Source of the DNA: Psilocybe cubensis
Lineage: Eukaryota
Reading direction: 5' to 3'
Length of the DNA stretch: 64,000 nt
NCBI GenBank assembly: GCA_017499595.2
Contig: CM038998.1
Coordinates: 4,030,001 to 4,094,000 of the forward strand
Made by a program: the position numbers and the translations under genes. The notes under the pieces were generated by a model. It searched no databases and was not told the DNA's origin. It saw only the letters and a list, made by a program, of their open reading frames with translations. This document shows positions 1-45,977 of the stretch, one piece after another; the stretch's first letter is position 1; every line of letters starts with the position of its first letter.

Positions 1-960
1 TGCTCCTCACTCGTCAGATTTTTTCAAGTTGACGGTGGCTGATACTACAGAGGCAGAGACAGGCAGAGACAGATGCATGGTATGACATTGCATTGCATTG
101 CATGGCATGATCGCGAATCGTGAATCCCTCCGTGACTCCGATGGTCCGTGGTCGTAGTGGTCCGTGGATGTCCATGCACGTTCGGTAGGTTCTTGATGAA
201 GGAAAGAAGGAAAGAAGGAAGGATACTTGCTAGTTACGCTGGGATAGTAGGAGACGGGATAGGAGTTTCCCTTTCCCTTTCATTTCCTTAATCTTTTCCT
301 TTACCTGACTCGCCGTATGGCGTTGGCGCTGGCATTGGCGCTGGCATTGGCATTGGTATTGGCGCGCCACTTCATACGCATGCGCGTGCACATACGCAGC
401 ATCGTCTCGTTTCGCGTTTCGCGTTTCGCGTTTCTAATTTCTCGATTTTAATTTCTAATTCATGCGTTTACGCGTTCGCGTTTCTCGTTTTTAATTTCTC
501 GATTTTAATTTCTAATTTCCCGTTCACGCGTTTCTCTCGTTCTCGTCCGCGCGCTATGTTAATGTGTAAATGTGTAAATGTGTTAATGTAGCTCACCATC
601 TCGACGACGCGACGACGCGACATTACACCCAACATCCAACATCCAACATCTAGCATCTAACATCTAACATCTAACATCTAACATCCCATCAACGCTTGAC
701 TTCATCACGACCACACTGAGCCTTTGCTTACACCTTTTTGCTTGGCAACAAGTACGAAGTATGAAGTACGAAGAGCGAAGTACGAGAAACGAAGAACGAA
801 GAACGAAGAACGGAAAAGAAGTATGAAGTATGAAGTATGATTATGACAGGAATTGATTGATTAGATGAGTTAATTTCAATTAAACTGCTCAGCTGTCATT
901 GACGCGACTCGCGACTCGCGAGACTGAGAACTGAGAAGAGGAGAGGAGAGGATACGAAAG
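1..960. repeat. Microsatellite/low-complexity intergenic tract
   Basis: Dense short tandem repeats: (CATTG)n, (GCGTTTC)n, (AACATCT)n, (ACGAAGA)n, (AAGTATG)n; no credible ORF. Confidence 0.8.
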
Positions 961-17113: not shown

Positions 17114-20100
17114 ATGACCTCTCAACCATTGCTTAGAGCGCAGAAGGCTTCAGAATCTGAGACTTATGGTTCTTCAATAACAGCGAATGTCAACTCCAAT
17201 TTGCCCAGGTGTGTATACAACACAAGTTCTTCCCTATCCTATCCCGGTGCAGAATAAGACTAAATCATAAAGAACTTCAGAGATACCAGCCAATCAATCA
17301 GATGGATCGAACCAGAAACTCACGAATTTCGTTCTCAAATTGCATCAGGAATGGATAACGAGTTTGTCGAGTGCAGCGTTGATATCTTTTTGAAGCATTA
17401 CCTTCCCTTTGAACCATCAGATGAAGCCGTTGAAACATGCATTGCAAAACTTCTCTGCAAACCTTTTTCTTTCGTCGACGGCGTAAGTGGTGCAAATCCT
17501 AGGTCCGAACAGGTTCCGGAAAAGCCTAGGCGATCGACGTGTGTAAAAACGTTGCCACAGCCTAGTTGTATCGAAAGGCATCCTATATTGTCAGTAGTAA
17601 AGTTTAAGGAACAGAAAGAACCAACAACTTGCGACGCTGAAACAACTGTTCTTCGATTCACAAATTACATGATGCGCCCTGGCAGACAAAGTTTAGGAAA
17701 CAAGAGTGTCTTCGCGCAATTGAAGTCTATTGCTGATGCAGTCGGAGGCCACAGCGAGACCTGTGACGGCAGAGTTCGCAATGATTTTCATTATCTAAAT
17801 TGTCCGGACGCAGTCATTTCGTCAAACATAGGGGGCTTTAAGAACAAGATCGACGCCTGCTTTTCCAATGGAGGAAGTGACTTGAACGTCAAGAACATCG
17901 CTGTGCCTATTGAGCAGCAAGCTTGGGTGGCAAGCAAATACTTTGTGAGTAAAATTTAACCAAGTATCACGTACTTTCTGCCAAACTTTTTCAAGACTAG
18001 TGACCGTCAGGTAGTATCCGCAAATGTTCAAATTATGAACGATGACGTGCGGCGTATGTTCACCTATGGGGTATGTAGAAATAGACTCTGCAAGACGGAA
18101 TATTTCTGATTTTTATTGGTTTCAGATGACCTTTGAAGGCGATAAGGCAACGCTGTGGTATCATTGTCGCTCTCATTCTGCTGTTTCGAAACAATTCAGC
18201 TTTGTCGAGGTATTTAGCATGCTTCTTTTCAATTGATGAACATTATTGATGTAATAGTCTCTAGAATCCCAGATTACTTGTCAAGGTGTTCTTATCGTTT
18301 CTATTTGCAACAGACGAAGAACTCGGCTACGATACCAACGTCACTGCAGTCGAAGGCAAGAAGCGTCAATACATTTTCAAAATCCCCAGTTCTGATGGGA
18401 AATCGGCCAAGTTCTACCGCACACTCAAGGTACTTTCTGAATACCCCTCGAACAACATCTCTGGTCGCATGGCGCGTGTATGGTTGGTCGATCGGGTCGA
18501 TTCTGATGGCAACAAAATTGGCCCGCCATGCGTCTTGAAAGACGTCTGGCTATCCATAAATGCTCTCACTGAAAAGGAGATCCAGACGGCCATCTTTGCA
18601 GATATTGAAAAATACTGTCATCCCGATAAGCCAGATTACAACCTGGCACTGGATCCTCCTACACGCTCTCCGCAGGCTGCTCTCAATGCTATCAAGATGC
18701 GAAATGCCGAGCTTGTTGAATCTGGAGAGTACAAGCAGTACTTTCTTGACATTGAAAGTGACTATTCTGGCAAGCCATCCAAAGACGTTTTGGAGGGATG
18801 TACTCCCGACATGGGCTTGTTTCACAGCGCCCATGCGAATAGGATCGCATCTTTGAACAACATTTCTATTCCATCGGTGGGATCGACAGGTTTTTCAAAG
18901 ACTCGTCGGTCTTCCATTAGAACATATACCCCCCGTAAACAGTATCGCGTCATCTTCAAAGAAGTCTGCCAGGCTGTGGGTGATCTGCCTACTTTGGGGA
19001 AGGTGGTTAATGTGCTCAAACAAACTGTTATTCGTGAGTGACAATCTTGATCAAATATCCACATTTTCTTATGTACTCTCTAGCCCTCTCTCTCTTGTAT
19101 TGCGCCAACTGGGTACACAGAGATATCAGCTCTGGGAACATTCTTGCCCATCAGCAAGGCTCAGTCTTTCGAGCTAAGTTATCAGACCTTGAATATGCCA
19201 AGAAATTTCCGCCACCTGCAGACCATCAAGGCAACGCTGATGCCAAAACGGTACATTTGCTATTTTAATCTTCCATGTGTACTGCTTTCCAAACAACATT
19301 CCAGGGAACTCCCTTTTTTATGCCTGTTGAGATAATGCAAAACTGTTATCTGTATGGCAAACCGAAAGCCGACAACGTAGATTCAAGAATCGAGGACCCA
19401 GTTATTTTGTTGGCAGAAATGCAACGCGTCGAGCATGGTGCTATGAATGATAAAGTTTGGACGAAAATACCATCTTATGAGGCGGTAATCTATAATTTCC
19501 AACACGATTTAGAGTCACTTTGGTGGGTCTTAGTGTGGTCTCTAACTGCACGTGTCAACCACCAACCTTCCAGGACGTGGGCCAACCAAATTTTTCAACA
19601 TGCCGATGTACCTACCTCTGAGAGGGTAAAATTTCTAAGGCCCTTTGACGAAAAGGATCTTGACACAAACACAAAAGCTCAGGACCCTTTGCAAGCTACC
19701 ATGCTCCCATCGATCTCATTTCTCAACTACATCGTGAACATTTTAAAAGATGCCTTGCATGTTGCTTATTCAGAGCATACAAGCAATGCCATCCTGAGAG
19801 AACCGCTATCTTATGCTATTGTTGTAAACCGCTTTTATTTGGGTTTCCAGCTATTCGACCGTGTTGCTGGCGCCCCCTGGGAGGAAACCCCTCTGGTGAT
19901 GAACATCCCTGCTGAAGGTCCCGACACTGTCCAACCTGTTGATACCAATACAGCAGTGTCTAGTGCTCCTTCACTTATCCCCCATCAAAAGGGGTCCAAT
20001 CCAAACATTCGGAAGACAGCACCCTCAGAATCGTTTCAACCAGGCTCGGGCGACGAAGACGTCAAACCTACCATAGAACAGCAAAGATCAAAGCGCTTTA

Positions 20101-20177
20101 AAAACCAGGATGATTCTATCACCAGCAGTTTGATGACTGGGCGCCAATCCAAATCAAGCACAAGATCGAAAGCTTGA
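17114..20177 (+). CDS. Fungal-type protein kinase (FunK1/Pkinase_fungal), copy 1; multi-exon
   Basis: QIMNDDVRRMFTYG, ISGRMARVW, VLKDVW, HRDISSGNIL, LSDLEYAK, GTPFFMPVEI, QHDLESLWWV. Confidence 0.85.
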
Positions 20178-20561
20178 GATGATGATTCAACTCGACGTCA
20201 ATAAAAAGCGACCTCCATCTCGTGGTTTTACGGGCCGTACTTTTACAGTTGTTGACTCAATAATTTATACTGTGTTGTAGCTAGTATATAAATCCATAGA
20301 TAAATTCGCGATAGCACAAGATTTTCTCAGTCACAATTAAAAAAACCATTGCTTCACCTAATGCACAAGGGGAGGCAAGATTTCTTTGTCGGAAGAATAA
20401 TAATGAGCATACCGTGAGAATGTGTTGACACCGTCACATGCCAGGCAGTGAACGCGTTGAAATGGCATTTTACATCTCCTCTATATAAGTCACCTATGTT
20501 CTGATATTCCTTGTGCGTCAGAATCCAGCACAATAATACCCCCTCATTTACAATCCTCTCT

Positions 20562-23389
20562 ATGTCTACCTATGAGTGCCTTTTCCAGCGCCAAATGGAT
20601 AACGAGTTTGTTGAGTGCAGCGTCGATGTTTTCTTGGAGCATTATCTTCCATTTGAGCCTTCTGAACTAGCTGTCGAAGTATGTATCTTGAGACTTCTTG
20701 GAAAGGACCCTGTTCCCACCAGCAATGCTACTGAAGGTTACCCCAGCCCCGAACAGGCTGCAAGAGCGCTTAGACGATCCACATGCTTAACACCACTTCA
20801 TCAACCTGTCAATGACAAAGAACAGCCAATATTGTCGGAAGTCATACTGGAGGAAACCACTGCTCTTCGATTCACCGACTATATGGAACGTCCTAGTAAA
20901 CAAGAGGCAGTGGAGAAGACGTTATTTGCTCCCTTGAAGTCTATCGCTGATGCCGTCGGAGGCTACAGCGAGACCTGTGACGGGAGGGTTCGCAACAATT
21001 TTCAGTATCTGAATTGCACGGAAAGAGTTATTTCGTCGGACATCGGGGGCTCAAACAATAGGATAGATGCCTGCTTTTCAAATGGAGGAAATGATCTGTA
21101 CACAAAGGATATCGCTGTGCCTATTGAGCAAAAGGTCTCCTGCGCCAACAGGGATTTAGTAAGTGTTATGCAACCTTTTGCACATGCTTTTAGCCAATCT
21201 TTTCTTCAAGAACAACTGTCAGGTAGTATCAGCAAATGTTCAAATCATGAACGATGACGTGCGGCGCATGTTCACCTATGGGGTACGTAGAATAGACTCT
21301 GCAAAACGGAATATTCTGATTTTTATTGGTTTCAGATGACGTTTGAAGGTGATAAGGCAACGCTGTGGTATCATTGTCGCTCTCATTCTGCTGTTTCGAA
21401 ACAATTCAGTTTTATCGAGGTATGCTCGTATGGTTCTTTTGAATTGGCAAATATTATTGATCTAATAATCACCCTAGAATCCGAAATTACTCGTCAAGGT
21501 GTTCCTGTCATTTCTATTTGCAACACACGAGGAACTCGGCTACGATCCTAACGTCACTGCGGTGAAAGGCAAGAAGCGTCAATACATTTTCAAAATCCCC
21601 AGTTCTGACGGGAAATCGGCCAAGTTCTACCGCACTGTCAAGGTACTTGCTGAATACCCCTCGAACAACATTTCTGGTCGCATGGCGCGTGTATGGTTGG
21701 TCGACCGGGTTGATTCTGAGGGCAACAAGATTGGCGCGCAATGCATCTTGAAAGATGTCTGGCTTTCCGTAAATGCTCTCACTGAAAAGGAGATCCAGAC
21801 AACCATATTTGCAGATATTGAAAAATACTGTCATCCCGACAAGCCAGATTACAACCTAGCATTGGATCCTCCTGAAGACTCTCCCGAGGCCTCTCTCAAT
21901 AATATCAAGATGCGAAATGCCGAGCTCGTTAAATCTGGCGAGTACAAGCAGTATTTCCTCGAAATTGAAAGTGATCATGGTGGCAAGCCATCCAAAGATG
22001 TTTTGGAGGGATGTACTCCCGTCACAGGCTTGTTTCAGAACGCACATGCGAATAGGATCACATCTGTGAACAACAATTCTATTCCATCGGTGGGATCGAC
22101 ACCTTTTATAAAGAGTGGACAGCAATGCAAGCGAACATTTACCCCCCGGAAACAATATCGCGTCATCTTTAAAGAAGTCTGCCAGGCTGTGGGCGATCTA
22201 CCTACTTTGGGGAAGGTGCTTAATATACTTAAACAAACTCTCATACGTAAGCTCCAACCTCGATTAAATTTCTACATTTATTCATGTATACATCCGTAGC
22301 CCTTTCGCTCCTGTACTGTGCTGGCTGTGTACACAGAGACATCAGCTCAGGGAATATTCTTGCTCATCAAGAAGGCAGGATCTTGCGGGCCAAATTGTCA
22401 GACCTTGAATATGCCAAGAGGTTTCCTCCACCTGAAGATTATGAAGCCAACGGTGACGCCAAAACGGTACTTTGTTATTTCACTCTTCTATGGGTCTTGT
22501 TGTCTCAACAAAATTCCAGGGTACTCCTTTTTTCATGCCTATCGAAATAATGCAAGAATTTTATATATATAATCGAATCGACAACAAGAACGACATAGAA
22601 TTTGCAATTCGCGATCCATCTCTTTTTGTCGCCAAACAACAACTCGCCCAGCTTGGTGCCCGCAGGAAAAATACTTCGCAGAACGATATGTCTTGTAACT
22701 CGGTGATCTATAATTTTCAACATGATCTTGAGTCGCTTTGGTGGGTTTTAGTGTGGTCTCTAACCGCACGTGTCAGCCACCAACCTTCCAGGACCTGGGC
22801 CAACGAAGTTTTTCAACATGATGTCGTGCCTACTTCTGAGAGGATACGCTTTCTGAGGGCTTCGTCCAGCATCACGCTTGAAGATATCATGCTCCCATCA
22901 ATCTCATTTATGCATCTCATGGTGGACTACATACGATCTGCCATGAATATTGCGTATTCAGAACGAGCAAGGGACGACACACTCAGAGACACGCTATCTT
23001 ATGCTATCATTGTAGACCGCTTCCATTTTTGCTTTAAACTACTCGAGAGTGTCGCCGGCTCCGCTTGGGAGGAAACGCCTCTTGTGATGAACATCCCCGC
23101 TGATGGCCCCAACTCTGTTCAGCCTGCCGATGGCGCTACAGCAGCGCCCGGTGCTCCCTCACTTTTTTCTAGTCGTAAGAGACCCAATCCAGACATTGGC
23201 AAGGCGGCACCCTCAGAATCTTTTAAACCAGGCCCGACTGACGAAGACGTAGAAGCTACCCTGGAACGGCAAAGGGCTAAGCGCATCAAAACGCGGGATG
23301 ATCCTAACGCAGGCGGCGGCTCAAATGCCGGAAGGCAATCCAACACCGGGACAATAGACGACAGGGCGTCGATCCAAGTTGGGCACTAG
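20562..23389 (+). CDS. Fungal-type protein kinase (FunK1), copy 2; short N-terminus
   Basis: Same motifs and intron positions as copy 1; starts MSTYE and runs almost directly into MDNEF. Confidence 0.85.
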
Positions 23390-30300: not shown

Positions 30301-31758
30301 GTCAAATCGTCGATAGGTCCCACTAAGATATCCACTGTGTAGGACAACAGTTGTAACAACAGTTTATTGTATTTGGCACCTAAGGATCAATTTAATCAGT
30401 GCACAGTAATTATAATTATGTCTTCTTCCATATGCTTAGACTCTGTCAAGGGTGTGAATTCCTCCAATTTTTCCCGGGTACGTCTCAATTTATTCTGGAT
30501 GAAGACCTTCGGCGCCGGTTCTATGCTCATTGCATCCTAGATAAAGTATTAAAATTATGCTACTGTATTATTGGAAAGAATTACCATGTCATAGTGCACA
30601 GAACAGGGTTCAAAAGTCCAACCTTCAGGTGCAATGAACACCCTTCTGTTATGGTCGATAAAAAGATCCTGATCCTTGACAATGTCAACTTGTTCAAATT
30701 TGGCAAGTGTATCAATGATTTGCGATTTGAGTGTGTCAAGATGCATCAATTGCAAATTTTGACAATGAACGACAATCTTGACAAAACATTCTATGAGACG
30801 GCGCTGAAGAGACTCTAGCAATAAAAAGTCAGGGTCCAGAAATGTTTCACATAACACAACCTACAAAGCTCCTGATTTTGATTGCAGAAGTTAGCCTAGA
30901 GTAGTAATCTTCCAAATTGAACCATAGTATACCCACATTCTCAAAATTAGGCACGTTTTCATTGTAGAATTTTCCCTTCGCTTAATTAGCAATGGCAATT
31001 AAAATCAAGTAAGAGCTTAAATGTCCAAAATGTTGACTTTAGCTTACACATTATTAATGGTATCGTATTTACTTACTTTTTAGAGTTCAACATATTGTTT
31101 TGTTGCTGTTTGGCTTGCCTTGCTGCACGTTCGGCATGTTTATTGTTGCTTGCACGCCCCTAATAACAACCAAGAAAGAGGGGTTAGAAGAAGGTAATTC
31201 CCAAAGTAATTGCCTGTCTATCTCCTTCTGTCAGAATGATTCAACTTAAGATAAAGAGTTAGAAGCCATCCCTGTGGTTATCTGTAATTGCGGATTGCTT
31301 GCCTTCTGTTTATTCTATTAAATGAAGTATTCAGGGTTTGACAGACCATTGATCAGAGAAAGATCTACAAACCTTAATGTGGTCGGCATAAACGCAATCC
31401 CGATCAAAAAAGCAACTTTTGAAAAAATGCCATCTTCTGCACAAGAAGAAAGATTGGATATATTAGATGGAATGCCTGATAATGACGCACTTTTTTCTTT
31501 GATTCTTCATTTCTCTTCTCGAGTATTCTCAAGATTTCAACTGTCCGGGACGTCATCCTGTCCGCAAAGTTGATATGATCTTGAGCAGTGGTACTTAAGG
31601 ATGTTATGAGTCCCTCATAAGTGTTTTCTAGGGTGCTTATGAATGTTCAGTTTCTTGGATGAATGACAATAGATGAAACTGATTTCTAACCATTGTTTGA
31701 GCATATTGGTATCCTGTGATTTGGTGGGATTGCTGCCAAACACGTAAACCAACAACAC

Positions 31759-32035
31759 TGTTAGGAATCGACTTAAGTCAAGAGAGAAGAGTGCCCAAAG
31801 ACCAAGTTGATATCGAAGCTGGGGTCTGACTACTGACCCCAGGACCCTATATATACATGGAGACCGGAGTAACTACTTCCCGGACCAGAGTACTCGACAT
31901 ATGACAACTATCAATAGATGAAACAGGAGAACGATAGACGTGGGACCGAACACAAAGATAGAACAAGGCATGACAGCGTGGGACCGTAACAGATAACGAT
32001 AACGGATAGGGGTGGCACCAATACGTACCCTGACA
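31759..32035 (-). repeat. 3' LTR
   Basis: 277 bp, identical by eye to 33065-33341; preceded on the minus strand by the PPT. Confidence 0.95.
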
Positions 32036-32048
32036 TCACCTCCCCTCT
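32036..32048 (-). other. Polypurine tract
   Basis: Minus strand AGAGGGGAGGTGA abuts the TG of the 3' LTR. Confidence 0.85.
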
Positions 32049-32076
32049 AAAGGTCGGTGTCCCAACGACCTGGTCT

Positions 32077-32973
32077 TCACCGTGGACGGTTTGCACCAAA
32101 GACACGAGGCGGTCCACCGCCACGACGCGCGGTCTGAATTCCCTCCCTAGGCTGAACAGGCCCGGGGCGAGAGTAACCGTCAGAGTGTTGCTGCGGAGCC
32201 CTGAGAGCGTCCACCTCCATAGGCGAACCAGGGGCGAGCGACGAGGATGGGCTGGAGCGAGTGTCGACAGCCGTAGGAGTGGGCAAATGCGGAGAAGCCG
32301 TCCCGGAACGGGATGTCCGCGTAGTTGGGGTAGAGCTCGAGGTTGGAGTAGGAGAAGGAGGTTCAACGACGAGGGTAGGAGGGGCGGCAGTGGGCGCAGG
32401 AGGCTGTTTAGGCTTCTTGGACCTAGGGTTGCGGATGCGACGACGGGCAATCCGCTTGCTGATAGCAGAAAGAGCATCACCAACTTCACGAGCGGTGCCC
32501 CTGATAGTGACGGCACGCAAACCGGAGGTGACGACGGGGGAGACCGAGATCTTTGCGTGCGAGATGTCGTGGATTTGGCGTAAGCCAGTTCCCGCGCGCC
32601 CTATGACATGGCCAGCCTGTTCGTCCGCAATAGACAGGGTAGCGACGATCTTCTCGAGGGCGGCTTTGGTAGTAGTAGAGCGGATGGATTGGGAGTGCGG
32701 GGGCCCTGTAGTAGGGGTAGAGGTAGGTGCAGCCGGGCGTTCCTTCCTAGAGGTGCGTCGAGCGCGAGATGCGCGAGCAGAGGGAGTGGGAGCGGCAGGC
32801 GGTTTGGGTAGGGAGGCTGTGAGGCGTTCAAGTTTAGACTCGATGGCAGACAGTCGGTCATCAACCTTTTTATCGGCGTCAAACCGGACTTGCTGCGCCC
32901 TAAAGAGAAGGGCGAAACGGTCCTCAAGGGACATCGTCATGAACCCATCGTAAGGCGAAGGAGGGTCGGCCAT
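32077..32973 (-). CDS. KH-domain RNA-binding protein (298 aa, intronless) carried by the LTR element
   Basis: aa ~109-175 VATLSIADEQAGHVIGRAGTGLRQIHDISHAKISV...RAVTIRGTAREVGDALSAI fits a type I KH fold with a GxxG loop; N-terminal heptad helix, basic KRIARRRIRNPRSKKPK, Pro/Ser/Thr linker, PMEVD motif. Confidence 0.85.
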   Translation of the reverse strand: MADPPSPYDGFMTMSLEDRFALLFRAQQVRFDADKKVDDRLSAIESKLERLTASLPKPPAAPTPSARASRARRTSRKERPAAPTSTPTTGPPHSQSIRSTTTKAALEKIVATLSIADEQAGHVIGRAGTGLRQIHDISHAKISVSPVVTSGLRAVTIRGTAREVGDALSAISKRIARRRIRNPRSKKPKQPPAPTAAPPTLVVEPPSPTPTSSSTPTTRTSRSGTASPHLPTPTAVDTRSSPSSSLAPGSPMEVDALRAPQQHSDGYSRPGPVQPREGIQTARRGGGPPRVFGANRPR

Positions 32974-33051
32974 AGAGTATAGTAGGTGGGGGCAAGGTAG
33001 AGTGGAGTAGACGAGCGCTGCAGTGGATAGAGTACCAGGGCAACGTTGGGT

Positions 33052-33062
33052 AGCTTCGATAT
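33052..33062 (-). other. Putative self-priming primer-binding site (11 nt)
   Basis: Minus strand ATATCGAAGCT begins 2 nt after the 5' LTR and is the exact reverse complement of AGCTTCGATAT inside the LTR (33126-33116); no TGG tRNA-type PBS. Confidence 0.75.
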
Positions 33063-33064
33063 GC

Positions 33065-33341
33065 TGTTAGGAATCGACTTAAGTCAAGAGAGAAGAGTGC
33101 CCAAAGACCAAGTTGATATCGAAGCTGGGGTCTGACTACTGACCCCAGGACCCTATATATACATGGAGACCGGAGTAACTACTTCCCGGACCAGAGTACT
33201 CGACATATGACAACTATCAATAGATGAAACAGGAGAACGATAGACGTGGGACCGAACACAAAGATAGAACAAGGCATGACAGCGTGGGACCGTAACAGAT
33301 AACGATAACGGATAGGGGTGGCACCAATACGTACCCTGACA
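33065..33341 (-). repeat. 5' LTR with TATA box (33154-33161)
   Basis: 277-bp TG...CA direct repeat; TATATATA begins 35 nt upstream of the PBS-complementary 11-mer. Confidence 0.95.
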
Positions 33342-33454
33342 AACACTTTAGTTTTCTTCTCCGAAGCTTTACGAGCCAAAACTTGAAGCTTGGAGGCAAA
33401 CTCTCGTTCCAAGGCGATGTGGGCCGTGTAAAGCTCCCGCATCTGTATGTTGCA

Positions 33455-34744
33455 TCATCAGCAAAAGTGACCAGACCCCCAAATGCCTTGGGAGCCTTAT
33501 AAGGCATGCCAATGTTTTACGTGACACAGTAATGTCACGCAAAACATTTGGGCAACATTTGGGAACACTCAAATCATTTGGTGGTCATTTGGAGGCCCCA
33601 CAAACATTTTTGAATCACAAAACAAGCACCAAATAATTTCTAGTAACTACAATTTACAAAAAAAAATTTGTACACTGTGCAACCTTGAAGGAATCATTTA
33701 ACAAAATTAAAAGAGGTCACAAAACATTTGGTTTTACACTTCGGTTATGAGAAATGTTTACAGGACTTTCAAATGCTGATGAAATAATTCATCCACACCA
33801 AAATTTACTGGCTATACAGCCACATTAGTTCTAATTAGAATTCTGTACAGTTGGTCACCCGGTCTGTACAATTTCTCGACTGTCAACGAAGTCACAATGC
33901 GATCAGCGTGAATCGGAGTGAATCGGAGATCAAATATTTGTTTGTTTGTGCATAATAATCTCTTTCAACCCCCGTTTCTTTCTTTCCACATACTCTCATG
34001 TTCACTACTCCGGCGACGCTTGGTGGGACTTGGGCTTGGACTTTTCAACTCTAAGTCTTCGTATATCATAGCTGAATCTAACTCACAGGTAATTCTGCCA
34101 CTTCCTTTCTGATTAGATCATCCTCAACTGACCATGTATCTGCCTTTCCGTAGACCGTTCTCCTTCTGCCTTAGATCTACTGGATATCCGGCTTGGTATA
34201 TAATCATTCACTAGTTCCCAAACTTTTAGGTGAGTATATGCGCACTTCTGCACACACACCTTGCTTACATTATGCGACCAAAGTAGCTCCTATAATTCAT
34301 GGGTACCATCTATTGATGACATCGTCTCAGCATCATTTTGTTATTTAACCACTTTCTCGCTTCTCTGTACCTTTTGGAGTCATGTTGTAGTATAAGTTTT
34401 CTTAATGCAACAAGTTCTTTTTACTTGCTATGATAATCTGAGGGATCCACTAAATAATGAACCATGTGAACTGTGTAAAACATTTAAACACTGGCAAATG
34501 TTTGCCAAATGTTTTTGGGACTCCCAAATGTTGCCTAAATGTTACGGACACTCAAATTTTAACCAAATGATTTGGCTATATTTAGTACTACCTAAATCAT
34601 TTGCTTGGAATAAATAATTCGAAGCCTTTCAGTCTTCGGAGTCTCTCGTTACGAACCGCACAATGCCTTTCGGGCATTGGGGCCTTTGGACGCCTCCAAA
34701 TGCCTTGTCAAGGCATTTGGGGATCCGAGCACTTTTGCTGATGA
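33455..34744. mobile_element. Non-autonomous TIR DNA transposon in a BZZ1 pseudogene intron
   Basis: Left TCATCAGCAAAAGTGACCAGACCCCCAAATGCCTTG versus right reverse complement TCATCAGCAAAAGTGCTCGGATCCCCAAATGCCTTG; TTGCA at 33450-33454 and 34745-34749; repeated subterminal AAACATTTG/CAAATG motifs; removing it restores a short intron. Confidence 0.85.
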
Positions 34745-35838
34745 TTGCAATATCAGTAGTTTATTGAAATGAAGTGCATCAGACTACTTGCATCGCTAAT
34801 GACCTCAAGGTGTGCGTCAAAAAAACTGGATATTCTCTCTACTTGTTCCTAAGAATAGACCAAGTAAGGATGAAGTTCGTTTAATGTGGACTACTTTACC
34901 GGAAGAGCCACGCCAAAACTTTGCCCCTGTGAAGCGTTTTGATCGCCCATTTGATTTCTACGGATGTTAAGTGAATAAAATTGTCTACAATGTTCCGAGG
35001 CTTAAAGATCTGGGGTTGTTGGAGTTGAGAATGTCGATGATGACGTCCAGGAATAAGTTGTTAGTCCTTTAGAGAATCCGGTGTTGCTACATATTTGCAT
35101 CATGTGATCACATTAGGGGTTAATTTAGATTTAGAGTATAGACTGACGTCACGCGTTCGCTACACCGCCATTACTATATAGACTCAAGCTAAACGGTGAT
35201 CTACAATCGATTGTCCTCCAAGCTCAATAGATAATGCTTTTAGCTCAGTGATAGTTGTCAACTATTATGGCATTGGAAAATAAATGGAATGCTATCACAG
35301 ACATGAATACTGTCATTATGTGTAAGGCTGCCACATTGAAGCTCTATGTATCCAAGATATTATTTGTCGTGGCAATATGATTCGTGAGATATGTCATTCA
35401 TATAGCAGTGTGTTCTATAGCACACAAGTAGACACAAATAGCATAGCATCCATGCAAACTCTATCCAGATCATGGATATAGCCGCTTGAAGTTCTTTGTG
35501 CTCGCTGTCAACTTATTTTGGAAGTTCAAACCTGTGGTCTGAGGCATGCCATTGCATCCGTATTTTTCTCGACAATAATTTATGGTGCGCTATGTGTACA
35601 AATTTTACCAGCTGTACATGTCATTCCGTTTTCAATATGGGGTCGCCTTCCAGGTGTTCCAGACTGAATAATTCTTTCGATTTAGAAAGCAACGAGAAAT
35701 ATTTCTGAGTATTAAACGAAGTTTCTCCAAGCGAGTATTCGACGTACGAGGTCACCTTGGAAGTCGGATGCTCAGCCACCTGACAAGTACGTTCAAAAGA
35801 AAAGACATGCCTCAAAGAACAATGGAAATTACAGGTGG

Positions 35839-40110
<4,272 letters not shown>

Positions 40111-43084: not shown

Positions 43085-45977
43085 ATGTCTACCTCTGAGG
43101 GTACCTCTACCAGCACGTTGTCTGTAACTGGTTTAAATCACGATGGTGCCACTGCTGCCGCACCTTCAACAATTACATATACTAGCACCACCCCTGATGC
43201 AGGCTTTCTGGTAGAACACGCCATCAACAACGACTCAAATGACTCTACAAGCGATAAAGGAGTCACAGCATCCAAGATTTCCGCAGATGCTGCTTTGGCA
43301 ACGAAAGTGGATGCCGACTCCAATGAGCCGAGGTGTGTGGCTTCAGCCATTGCTCTTTCTTCCTTCAGGGTGACAAGACTTCAGTAGACGCTCGGAAACA
43401 CCCCAAACCAATTGCGCGGATAACACAAACGAAAATCTTTCCATCCTTCAGTCACAGATTGCATTAGAAATGAATGACGAGTTCATCGAGTGCAGTGTCG
43501 ATGTTTTCTTCAAGCATTACCTTCCATTTGAGCCTTCAGAAGCAGCTGTTGAAGAATGTGTCCTGAGACTTCTCTGCAAGGATCATGCTCCCAATGGCGA
43601 CGCTGGTGAATGTTTCCATCCCAAACAGGCTCCTATGACGCCTAGACAATGCGCACAAATTAAGCCACTTCATAAACTTGACGACAACACAGGCCACCCC
43701 ATATTGTCGGAAGTTGTGCTAACGGTTGGGTATCCGGATACTCCTGGTCTTCGATTCACCGACTACATGAAACGGCCTGGTAGCCACGGCTCTGTGGAAA
43801 AGACAGTATTTGCTCCCTTGAAGACTATTGCTGATGCCGTTGGGGGCTATAGCGAGACATGTGACGGCAGGGCTCGCAACAATTTCCAGTATCTCCATTG
43901 TCCGCAGACAGTCATTTCATCGGATATAGGGGACTCTAAAAGCAGGATAGATGCCTGCTTTTCCCATGAAGGAAGTGATTTACACACCAAGTATATTGCT
44001 GTGCCTATTGAGCAGAACGTCTCCGCCGCCAACAGGAATTCAGTAAGTGTTATGCAATATTTTTACACATGCTTTTTGCCAACCTTTCCTTTAAGAACAA
44101 CCGTCAGGTAGTATCGGCAAATGTTCAAATCATGAACGATGACGTGCGGCGAATGTTCACCTATGGGGTTACGTAGTAGAAATAGACTGTGAAAAGGCAA
44201 TATTTCTGATTTTTAGTGGTTTCAGATGACCTTTGAAGGCGACAAGGCAACGCTGTGGTATCACTGTCGCTCTCATTCTGCTGTTTCGAGACAATTTAAC
44301 TTTGTCGAGGTATGCTTGTGAGGTTCTTTTGAATCGGCGAACATTACTGATCTATTAATCTCTAGAATCCGAAATTACTTGTCAAGGTGTTCCTGTCATT
44401 TCTATTCGCAACAGACGAAGAACTCGGCTACGATCCCAACGTCACTCTGGTCGAAGGCAAGAAGCGTCAGTACACTTTCACAATCCCCAGTTCTGATGGG
44501 AAATCGGCCAAGTTCTACCGCACTGTCAAAGTTATTTCTGAATATCGCTCGAACAACATTTCTGGTCGCATGGCGCGTGTATGGTTGGTCGATCGGGTTG
44601 ATTCTGAAGGCAACAAGATTGGCCCGCAATGCGTCTTGAAAGACGTCTGGCTTGCCGTAAATGCTCTCACTGAAAAGGAGATCCAGACGGCCATCTTTGC
44701 AGATATCGAAAAATACTGTCACCCCAACAAGCCAGATTACAACCTGGCATTGGATCCTCCTGAAGACTCTCCCGAGGCCTCTCTCAATGCTATCAAGATG
44801 CGAAATGCCGAGCTCGTTAAGTCTGGCAAGTACAAGCAGTACTTTCTTGACATTGAAAGTGATTATTCTGGGAAGCCATCCAAAGACGTTTTGGAGGGAT
44901 GTACTCCCGTCACAGGCTTGTTTCAGAACGCCGATGCAGATAGGATTGCATCTTTGAACGACAATTCTATTCGACCGGTAGGATCGACACCTTTTATAAA
45001 GAGTGGACAGCAACACAAGCGAACATTTACCCCCCGGAAACAATATCGCGTCATCTTCAAAGAAGTCTGCCAGGCTGTGGGCGATCTGCCTACTTTGGGG
45101 AAAGTGCTTAATATACTTAAACAAACTCTCATACGTAAGCTCCAACCTCGATTAAATTTCTACATTTATTCATGTAGACATTCGTAGCCCTTTCGCTCCT
45201 GTACTGTGCTGGCTGGGTACACAGAGACATCAGCTCAGGGAATATTCTTGCTCATCAAGAAGGCAGGATCTTGCGGGCCAAATTGTCAGACCTTGAATAT
45301 GCCAAGAGGTTTCCTCTACCTGAAGACTATGAAGGCAATGTTAATCCCAAAATCGTACTTTGTTATTTTACTTTTCTAACCGTGTTGCTGTCCTAACAAA
45401 ATTCCAGGGCACTCCTTTTTTTATGCCTGTCGAAATAATGCAAGACGTTTATCTATATAGTCAAATCGTCAACGATGACGACCTAGAATTTGCAATTCAC
45501 AACCCGACTCTTTTTATTGCCAAACAACAACACGATCTTGGTGGCCCCCGAAAAAATACTACGCAGAACAATATCTTAGAAAAACCGGTGATCTATAATT
45601 TTCAACATGATCTCGAGTCGCTTTGGTGGGTTTTAGTGTGGTCTCTAACCGCACGTGTCAGCCATCAACCTTCCAGGACCTGGGCCAACCAAGTTTTTCA
45701 ACATGATGTCGTGCCTACTCCTGAGAGGGTACGCTTTCTGAGGGCTTTGTCCAGGATCACGCTTGAAGATATCATGCTCCCATCAATCTCATTTCTGCAT
45801 GTCCTGGTGGAACTCATAAGATCTGTCATGAATATTGCGTATTCAGAGCTTGAAAGGGGCGACACATTCAGAGACACGCTGTCTTATGCCATCACTGTAG
45901 ACCGCTTTCATTTATGTTTTCAACAACTCGAGAGTGTCTCCGGCGCCCCTTGGGAGGAAACACCTCTTGTGATGTGA
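43085..45977 (+). CDS. Fungal-type protein kinase (FunK1), copy 3; C-terminal tail truncated by a 2-bp insertion
   Basis: Same motifs and introns as copies 1 and 2; GTGATGTGAACATC here versus GTGATGAACATC in the paralogues creates TGA at 45975-45977, while tail homology continues to about 46260. Confidence 0.8.

Follow-up and report, generated by a model that had tools for sequence, protein, structure and literature searches.

A mobile LTR element of Psilocybe cubensis that lacks pol and encodes a conserved KH protein

Introduction

Most accounts of non-autonomous long terminal repeat (LTR) elements present them as devoid of coding capacity or as encoding gag alone. TRIM, LARD and TR-GAG elements have in common LTRs, a primer-binding site (PBS), a polypurine tract (PPT) and a target-site duplication without pol, and are presumed to be mobilized in trans. 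TRIM and LARD elements are non-coding, whereas a genuine gag is retained in TR-GAG and BARE-2. In this work, we describe a 1583-bp element of Psilocybe cubensis that shares its small size with TRIM and its single open reading frame (ORF) with TR-GAG, but differs from both in that this ORF is conserved and encodes a KH-domain protein that shows no capsid or zinc-knuckle signal and is under purifying selection. The element occupies positions 31759..33341 of the stretch of DNA that was analysed, 64,000 nucleotides of contig CM038998.1 (assembly GCA_017499595.2, forward-strand positions 4,030,001 to 4,094,000), hereafter referred to as the window and used as the coordinate system throughout.

The second group of relevant systems comprises the self-priming retrotransposons. 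Tf1 primes its own reverse transcription by means of a PBS that is complementary to the start of its transcript over 11 nt (PMC7175516), and the same mode of priming has been put forward for the Cryptococcus element Tcn1 as well as for two clades of chromoviruses, Tf1/sushi and Tcn1 (PMC7175516, PMC6317226). The element of P. cubensis resembles them in having a PBS complementary to its own, here predicted, transcript start (11 nt, as in Tf1), a 5-bp target-site duplication and TG..CA LTR ends. Unlike these autonomous elements, which encode gag, protease, reverse transcriptase (RT) and integrase, it has no RT by which it could be placed in their RT phylogeny, and would have to borrow their enzymes. 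As detailed below, the element is mobile, lacks pol and carries a single conserved gene, which encodes a KH protein.

A very recent insertion that differs between isolates

Because its ORF lies on the minus strand, the element reads on that strand, and has its 5' LTR at 33341..33065 and its 3' LTR at 31759..32035. Both LTRs measure 277 nt, are 100% identical and have TG...CA termini (5'-TGTCAGG...CCTAACA-3' on the minus strand); repeat comparison returns 278 nt, since one adjoining C also matches. A perfect duplication of the target site, AACAC, is found at 31754..31758 on the 3' side of the element and at 33342..33346 on its 5' side. The 1029-bp interior between the LTRs contains a PPT (AGAGGGGAGGTGA, 32036..32048, minus strand) that directly touches the 3' LTR, a PBS that is considered further below, and a single ORF (32077..32973, minus strand, stop codon included). 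This ORF is the sole intact frame, lacks introns and specifies a protein of 298 aa. The identical LTRs, the AACAC duplication, the PPT and the intact ORF had all been listed in an initial annotation made from the sequence alone, and all of them hold.

With its TG...CA LTRs, PPT, PBS and a duplication for which an empty site is available, the element is structurally an LTR retrotransposon. It encodes neither gag nor pol, which excludes it from the autonomous Ty3/gypsy and Ty1/copia elements. Its size, 1583 bp, is that of a TRIM, yet the presence of a conserved, intact 298-aa ORF separates it from this class.

Raw reads of a second isolate bearing the same species label (X16) were aligned to positions 31400-33700. 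They contain a joint, 31753->33342, that omits 1588 nt, i.e., the 1583-nt element and one AACAC, a single copy of the duplication being left. Forty-three reads with 32 start points support this joint, where the flank depth is ~55-74, and the site in X16 is empty, largely or wholly. An identical 31753->33342 joint occurs in one contig of X9, a run from a further study that was compared over the same interval. Moreover, X16 reads have loose ends exactly at 31759, 32035, 33065 and 33341, the four LTR boundaries. Past the boundaries, the continuations of these reads agree poorly with one another (consensus agreement 0.37-0.43), a sign of many different flanks, and the depth over the interior of the element is ~6x that of the flanks. 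The variant places number 162, 153 of which are transitions, including 110 of the C>T or G>A type. Given the identical LTRs and the empty-site allele, the insertion at this locus is very recent and polymorphic, and belongs to an element that is dispersed and present in multiple copies; the initial annotation had called it young.

LTR-flanked families of ORFs that do not move are known, the wtf genes being an example (PMC7175516). A host KH gene family could in principle sit immobile between LTRs in the same way, as S. pombe wtf genes do with Tf LTRs. The identity of the LTRs, the 5-bp duplication and the lack of an intron in the ORF speak against such an origin, which is brought close to refutation by an empty-site allele missing exactly LTR-ORF-LTR and one AACAC. 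The PBS, the PPT and a hairpin are also kept beside the ORF in distant relatives. We therefore consider an immobile host gene family to be extremely improbable.

In the reconstructed empty site, the host reading frame continues across the point of insertion (...KASEKKTK / VLLVYVFG...). The flanking host exon has a weak FCH/F-BAR match (E 4.2e-4, 21 bits for a cutoff of 27.8, over 32 aa only) and the downstream host exon an SH3_9 match of 26.2 bits, under the cutoff of 30; both scores fall below the Pfam cutoffs because the exon pieces are short. The initial annotation had the element splitting an exon of BZZ1. The split itself stands, as the frame runs over the empty site, and the identification of the host gene as an F-BAR/SH3, BZZ1-like gene is plausible in view of these sub-cutoff matches.

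The host flanks of X16 (31400-31720 and 33350-33450) display two alleles at intermediate frequency at many positions, and in X9 two contigs cover the flanks, one departing from the window sequence at 17 of 250 positions and the other at 21 of 250. Such variation fits a pair of diverged haplotypes, of the sort that a dikaryon contains.

The KH protein

The product of the ORF has a type-I KH fold. Pfam KH_1 (PF00013), the only family to pass its Pfam cutoff, matches residues 112-172 with 36.2 bits (cutoff 21.5; E 5.1e-9), residues 125-128 form the GxxG loop with the sequence GRAG, and the nearest PDB chains by sequence are KH domains of PCBP1/2 and hnRNP K. An AlphaFold2 model of the 298-aa protein, built on 38 family members, places a beta-alpha-alpha-beta-beta-alpha arrangement at residues 109-175 with a predicted local distance difference test (pLDDT) score of 86-95 over this block. 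The domain, delimited by Pfam, the PDB matches, the model and Foldseek, is encoded by 32449..32649 (minus strand). Foldseek ranks KH3 of PCBP2 as its top match (2p2r_A, E 5.8e-7, template modelling (TM) score 0.90, root-mean-square deviation 1.3 A), followed by KH3 of hnRNP K, PCBP1, Nova and FUBP1, at 28-33% identity. In the ESM Atlas, only basidiomycete KH clusters were retrieved, with scores of 0.82-0.85. While PCBP1/2 and KH3 of hnRNP K provide the best sequence and structure matches and share the GxxG loop, PCBP1/2 and hnRNP K differ from the element's protein in having at least three KH domains, no N-terminal long helix and only 28-33% identity.

The domain is preceded by an N-terminal long helix and a disordered linker, and followed by a basic patch and a Pro/Ser/Thr-rich tail that carries the conserved motifs PGSPMxVD and QTARRG. 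The helix is predicted at residues 16-53 (codons 32815..32928, minus strand) with a pLDDT of ~93 and bears a conserved RLxALES motif. Everything outside the long helix and the KH domain is disordered in the model, whose mean pLDDT is 68. A two-copy model of residues 6-60 obtained a score of 0.03, which speaks neither for nor against self-association of the N-terminal part.

No Pfam family for gag, zinc knuckle, protease, RT or integrase matches the 298-aa protein at E<=10. The protein contains no cysteine at all and consequently no zinc knuckle, and no capsid-like fold was seen in the AlphaFold2 model. Without a Pfam gag or a single cysteine, and with a model composed of one helix, one KH domain and disorder, the element does not belong with TR-GAG or other gag-only elements. 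The initial annotation was accurate on both counts, i.e., a KH domain with a VIGRAG GxxG loop and no pol, capsid or zinc knuckle, and the KH fold that it had made the first point to verify was found by Pfam as well as in the structural model.

The possibility that the tail mimics the polyprotein of a helper was also considered. Residues 236-298 found no match among proteins of 523-2000 aa, a result that counts only weakly against this idea.

The ORF1p protein of LINE-1, a non-LTR element, combines an RNA recognition motif (RRM) with a trimeric coiled coil. The layout of the KH protein resembles ORF1p more closely than it does the Gag of LTR elements: both would comprise an N-terminal helix, a single RNA-binding domain and a C-terminus that is basic or disordered, and both are encoded by the RNA that is their presumed target. 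They differ in that ORF1p has an RRM and belongs to a non-LTR element, whereas here a KH domain is found in an element of the LTR type; the likeness is one of functional analogy and not of membership.

PCBP and hnRNP K control mRNA stability and translation, and PCBPs act on C-rich untranslated regions. The relationship of the KH domain to these proteins, the absence of a capsid-like fold and the lack of matches between the tail and long polyproteins would all suit a mobile non-autonomous element whose KH protein is neither a packaging factor nor a substitute for Gag, and acts instead in mRNA stability or translation, in counter-silencing, or as cargo beneficial to the host. On the other hand, the ORF and the cis elements described below are conserved together, which shows only that the protein serves the propagation of the element, in whichever of these roles. 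A purely regulatory, counter-silencing or cargo role appears unlikely to us.

A widespread family under purifying selection

The protein of the window is itself present in a public protein collection, in a 90% cluster of 14 members that includes 11 distinct 298-aa proteins on several large contigs of P. cubensis. A second cluster contains two 275-aa variants from the annotation of the same species. This annotation count is a lower bound, and P. cubensis has at least 11 distinct 298-aa copies. Annotated copies that are more diverged contain many substitutions, of the types R>C, R>H, S>L and E>K.

A homologue search recovered 36 proteins. Annotated homologues, 75-47% identical, occur in Agrocybe pediades, Psilocybe cf. 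subviscida and Dendrothele bispora, and many further ones lie on environmental contigs of 1-2 kb. An exhaustive HMMER search gave 412 matches at E<=1e-3 and 78 at E<=1e-10, the latter consisting of 71 proteins with the single KH domain typical of the family and seven multi-KH proteins. P0005, counted among the 71, represents a copy of the window type and was matched in three stretches. The family alignment reveals conservation of the RLxALES helix, of an APTSTPT motif, of the KH core with AIGKRLARRRIRxPRxKKK behind it and, near the C-terminus, of the two tail motifs given above. Three environmental proteins of 759-781 aa (P0122, P0147 and P0172) retain the layout of N-terminal helix, KH domain and basic patch, and extend it by a disordered tail of ~450 aa and a small conserved C-terminal domain that was assigned to no family.

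ORFs of relatives were found in 13 metagenome loci. Five of these 13 contigs are looped, with the same sequence at both ends, and define units of 1254, 1520, 1375, 1573 and 1612 bp, to be compared with the 1306 bp of one LTR plus interior in the window; such units leave no room for pol. LTR pairs were identified in three further metagenome contigs. The junction between PPT and LTR is kept in 10 of the 13 loci, as a purine run followed by TGTYAGG (six loci) or TGTAAGG (four loci). The layout of this ORF within a mini LTR element recurs in many sequences from basidiomycetes and soil metagenomes.

Selection was measured only on pairs of LTR-flanked relatives whose synonymous divergence (dS) is unsaturated. 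For the pair L007-L011 (dS 0.27), the ratio of non-synonymous to synonymous divergence (dN/dS) is 0.32 over the whole ORF and 0.08 over the KH domain and basic block (p 4e-6). For L006-L008 (dS 0.37), the corresponding values are 0.40 and 0.13 (p 5e-6). The tail evolves faster than the KH block, with a dN/dS of ~0.5. Strong purifying selection therefore acts on the KH block.

LTR elements can take up fragments of host genes, as exemplified by Bs1 (PMC13317346), and the initial annotation had mentioned a one-off host cDNA, captured by an LTR element and decaying neutrally, as an outcome that would overturn its proposal. Bs1 of maize is comparable in that a host-derived coding sequence lies inside an LTR element. 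It contains, however, fragments of three host genes and is restricted to one species, whereas a complete domain protein and its accompanying cis elements are found throughout the KH family. The breadth of this family, the at least 11 copies in P. cubensis and a KH-block dN/dS of 0.08-0.13 refute a single captured cDNA, to which we attach practically no probability.

The same initial annotation had raised the possibility of a deletion derivative, namely that the element descends from an autonomous LTR retrotransposon for which the KH protein is the gag. Gag sequences are very diverse, and gag-only elements such as TR-GAG and BARE-2 are known in plants; the matches for TR-GAG in the literature searched concern plants only. 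However, among the 150 listed of the 412 HMMER matches, none exceeds 875 aa. A scan of nine of the longer family members revealed neither gag nor RT nor integrase: KH_1 stands alone in seven, one has no family at all, and P0148 has additional weak GDSL-lipase and CCCH matches. A profile search of proteins of 658-2000 aa returned a single KH-only protein and no pol fusion, these searches for an autonomous twin being less than exhaustive. Furthermore, all five looped environmental units measure 1.25-1.6 kb, and the reads that leave the LTRs on their inner side do not converge on a dominant alternative interior (agreement 0.37-0.43). Taken with these results, descent from an autonomous element with a KH gag is improbable.

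One metagenome contig, L004, bears a putative gag-like frame (positions 1-663, minus strand) on the strand opposite to a 5'-truncated KH element that it adjoins. Its candidacy as a link to a helper was rejected, the arrangement being read as nested transposons on one contig.

Annotations of fungal genomes list ORFs of this kind as host proteins, either hypothetical or 'K Homology domain-containing'. A search of full-text literature, with Repbase and Dfam outside its scope, yielded no account of an LTR element that encodes a KH protein, and the initial annotation likewise knew of none with this architecture. The KH mini-LTR family is widespread and apparently undescribed.

Self-priming and other cis elements

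A PBS had been listed in the initial annotation. A site is indeed present, 2 nt past the 5' LTR (ATATCGAAGCT, 33062..33052, minus strand), and only its nature has to be corrected. The sequence past the 5' LTR does not open with TGG, and the site is a perfect complement of a segment inside the LTR itself (AGCTTCGATAT, 33126..33116, minus strand). A tRNA-type PBS was rejected on the grounds that the site lacks the initial TGG and is instead self-complementary to the LTR, no tRNA search being made. The segment within the 5' LTR is the proposed self-primer: the start of a TATATATA box (33154..33161, minus strand) lies 35 nt ahead of it, and it is predicted to constitute the first 11 nt of the transcript.

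The same disposition of PBS and LTR site, with different sequences, is observed in 10 of the 13 metagenome loci, the other three lacking the region or being rearranged. Complementarity between cognate LTR and PBS is perfect over 10-13 nt in all 11 assessable elements, and reaches 10 nt in only 1 of 110 non-cognate pairs and 3 of 2200 shuffled LTRs. Over the 10 core pairs of an eight-sequence alignment, 80 of 80 cells are paired, and five pairs have double changes while none has a single-sided change. When all 13 pairs are counted, 84.6% of the cells are paired vs. 25-36% in slid controls, and none of 500 shuffles attains the covariation score. These pair counts use eight of the 11 sequences, as L002, L006 and L008, in which the PBS abuts the LTR and the MAFFT alignment is out of register, were left out; all three were retained in the complementarity and non-cognate tests. 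In addition, a TATA-like motif is situated ~31-37 nt upstream of the LTR site in each of the 10 elements for which upstream sequence exists. From these patterns we strongly infer that reverse transcription of the KH elements is self-primed, as it is in Tf1.

Two other cis features accompany the ORF. Upstream of the PPT, a hairpin (32052..32070, minus strand) consists of a 5-bp stem, GGTCG/CGACC, and a 9-nt loop. Ten elements keep this pre-PPT hairpin, 8-10 nt upstream of the PPT and with the loop consensus YCGGGWCRY; 41 of 50 cells are paired, all five pairs have double changes, and the covariation score is reached by none of 500 shuffles. The leader that runs from the PBS to the ATG (32974..33051, minus strand) is C-rich and G-poor (C 44%, G 12%), as it is in all 10 elements compared (C 35-51%, G 7-15%). 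The KH domains of PCBP and hnRNP K prefer poly(C). By analogy with these nearest KH domains, the composition of the leader fits a poly(C) preference of the element's own protein, which may bind there.

Proposed mechanism of mobilization

We favor the following reading, which is probably correct: the element is a non-autonomous mini LTR element that is self-primed, depends on the RT and integrase of a helper in trans, and has a KH protein that replaces Gag. The initial annotation had already proposed a mobile satellite element that borrows RT and integrase in trans and keeps its own RNA-binding protein; this proposal is supported, and none of the three outcomes named there as refuting it was observed. 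Transcription would start ~35 nt downstream of the TATA box of the LTR, and the first 10-13 nt of the transcript would fold back onto the PBS located just past the 5' LTR. The RNase H of the helper would then cut the duplex and thereby generate the primer. RT/RNase H and integrase would be supplied in trans by a self-priming Ty3/gypsy element of the Tf1/sushi/Tcn1 type residing in the same genome. In place of Gag, the KH protein would act as the element's own RNA-binding partner, recognizing the C-rich leader, and perhaps the pre-PPT hairpin, of the RNA by which it is encoded. Such binding in cis would give this RNA preferential access to the helper machinery. Both the helper and this role of the KH protein are postulated on the basis of the features described above.

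Several points weigh against this reading or restrict its scope. No helper element was identified, and the 64-kb window contains no gag-pol. RNA binding, cis-preference and packaging are properties that we infer for the KH protein. The transcript start, and hence the self-primer, is predicted solely from the sequence and its spacing from the TATA box. The richness of the leader in C stems partly from a sense strand that is C-rich as a whole (28-38% C in the ORF). The paired structures were derived from the very sequences in which pairs were then counted, which favors them; the slid and non-cognate controls argue against a pairing artefact. Finally, the older annotated copies with their many substitutions indicate that individual insertions decay, selection being exerted only on the active lineage.

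Other features of the window

A second repeated element of ~1.29 kb (33454-34745) begins 112 bp from the KH element and lies directly upstream of the host exon. It has terminal inverted repeats of 37 nt (89% complementary) as well as sub-terminal inverted repeats. Read depth rises to ~500 over this element vs. ~64 in its flanks, reads break off at 33456 and 33490, and X14, a putative RNA run, has a contig over 33456-33636 only. The element looks like a non-autonomous DNA transposon, similar to miniature inverted-repeat transposable elements.

Elsewhere in the window, three copies of a ~3.2-kb unit, 65-93% identical, occupy 17264-23389 and 43374-45977, two in tandem and one 23 kb off. Their ORFs match Pfam Pkinase_fungal (FunK1) with an E of 2.6e-11, and form a local cluster of paralogues. 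A long repeat of the hexanucleotide CAGACG (38890-39147) is embedded within long ORFs that overlap on both strands.

Concluding remarks

Against the usual picture of non-autonomous LTR elements, the KH element brings one RNA-binding protein that is not a Gag and that is maintained by purifying selection. Its insertion in the window interrupts what is plausibly a host F-BAR gene, and this interruption varies between isolates of P. cubensis.

A broader proposal, which we advance tentatively and regard as possible though somewhat short of even, is that these elements form a widespread and undescribed Agaricomycete class of self-priming mini LTR elements in which Gag has been replaced by a helix and a KH domain, and which parasitize chromoviruses for their RT, RNase H and integrase. 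The self-priming strategy of the Tf1 type would thereby be extended to a non-autonomous element. If this is true, a ribonucleoprotein strategy akin to that of ORF1p would have arisen within an LTR element, the latter supplying its own primer and its own RNA-binding protein.

The set of covarying cis elements, made up of the self-primer and PBS, the pre-PPT hairpin and the C-rich leader, together with a small protein, lends itself to direct testing. The family may accordingly serve as a natural system for the study of cis-preference and helper parasitism in LTR elements, and raises the question of the minimum that a retroelement must itself encode when it steals everything else.

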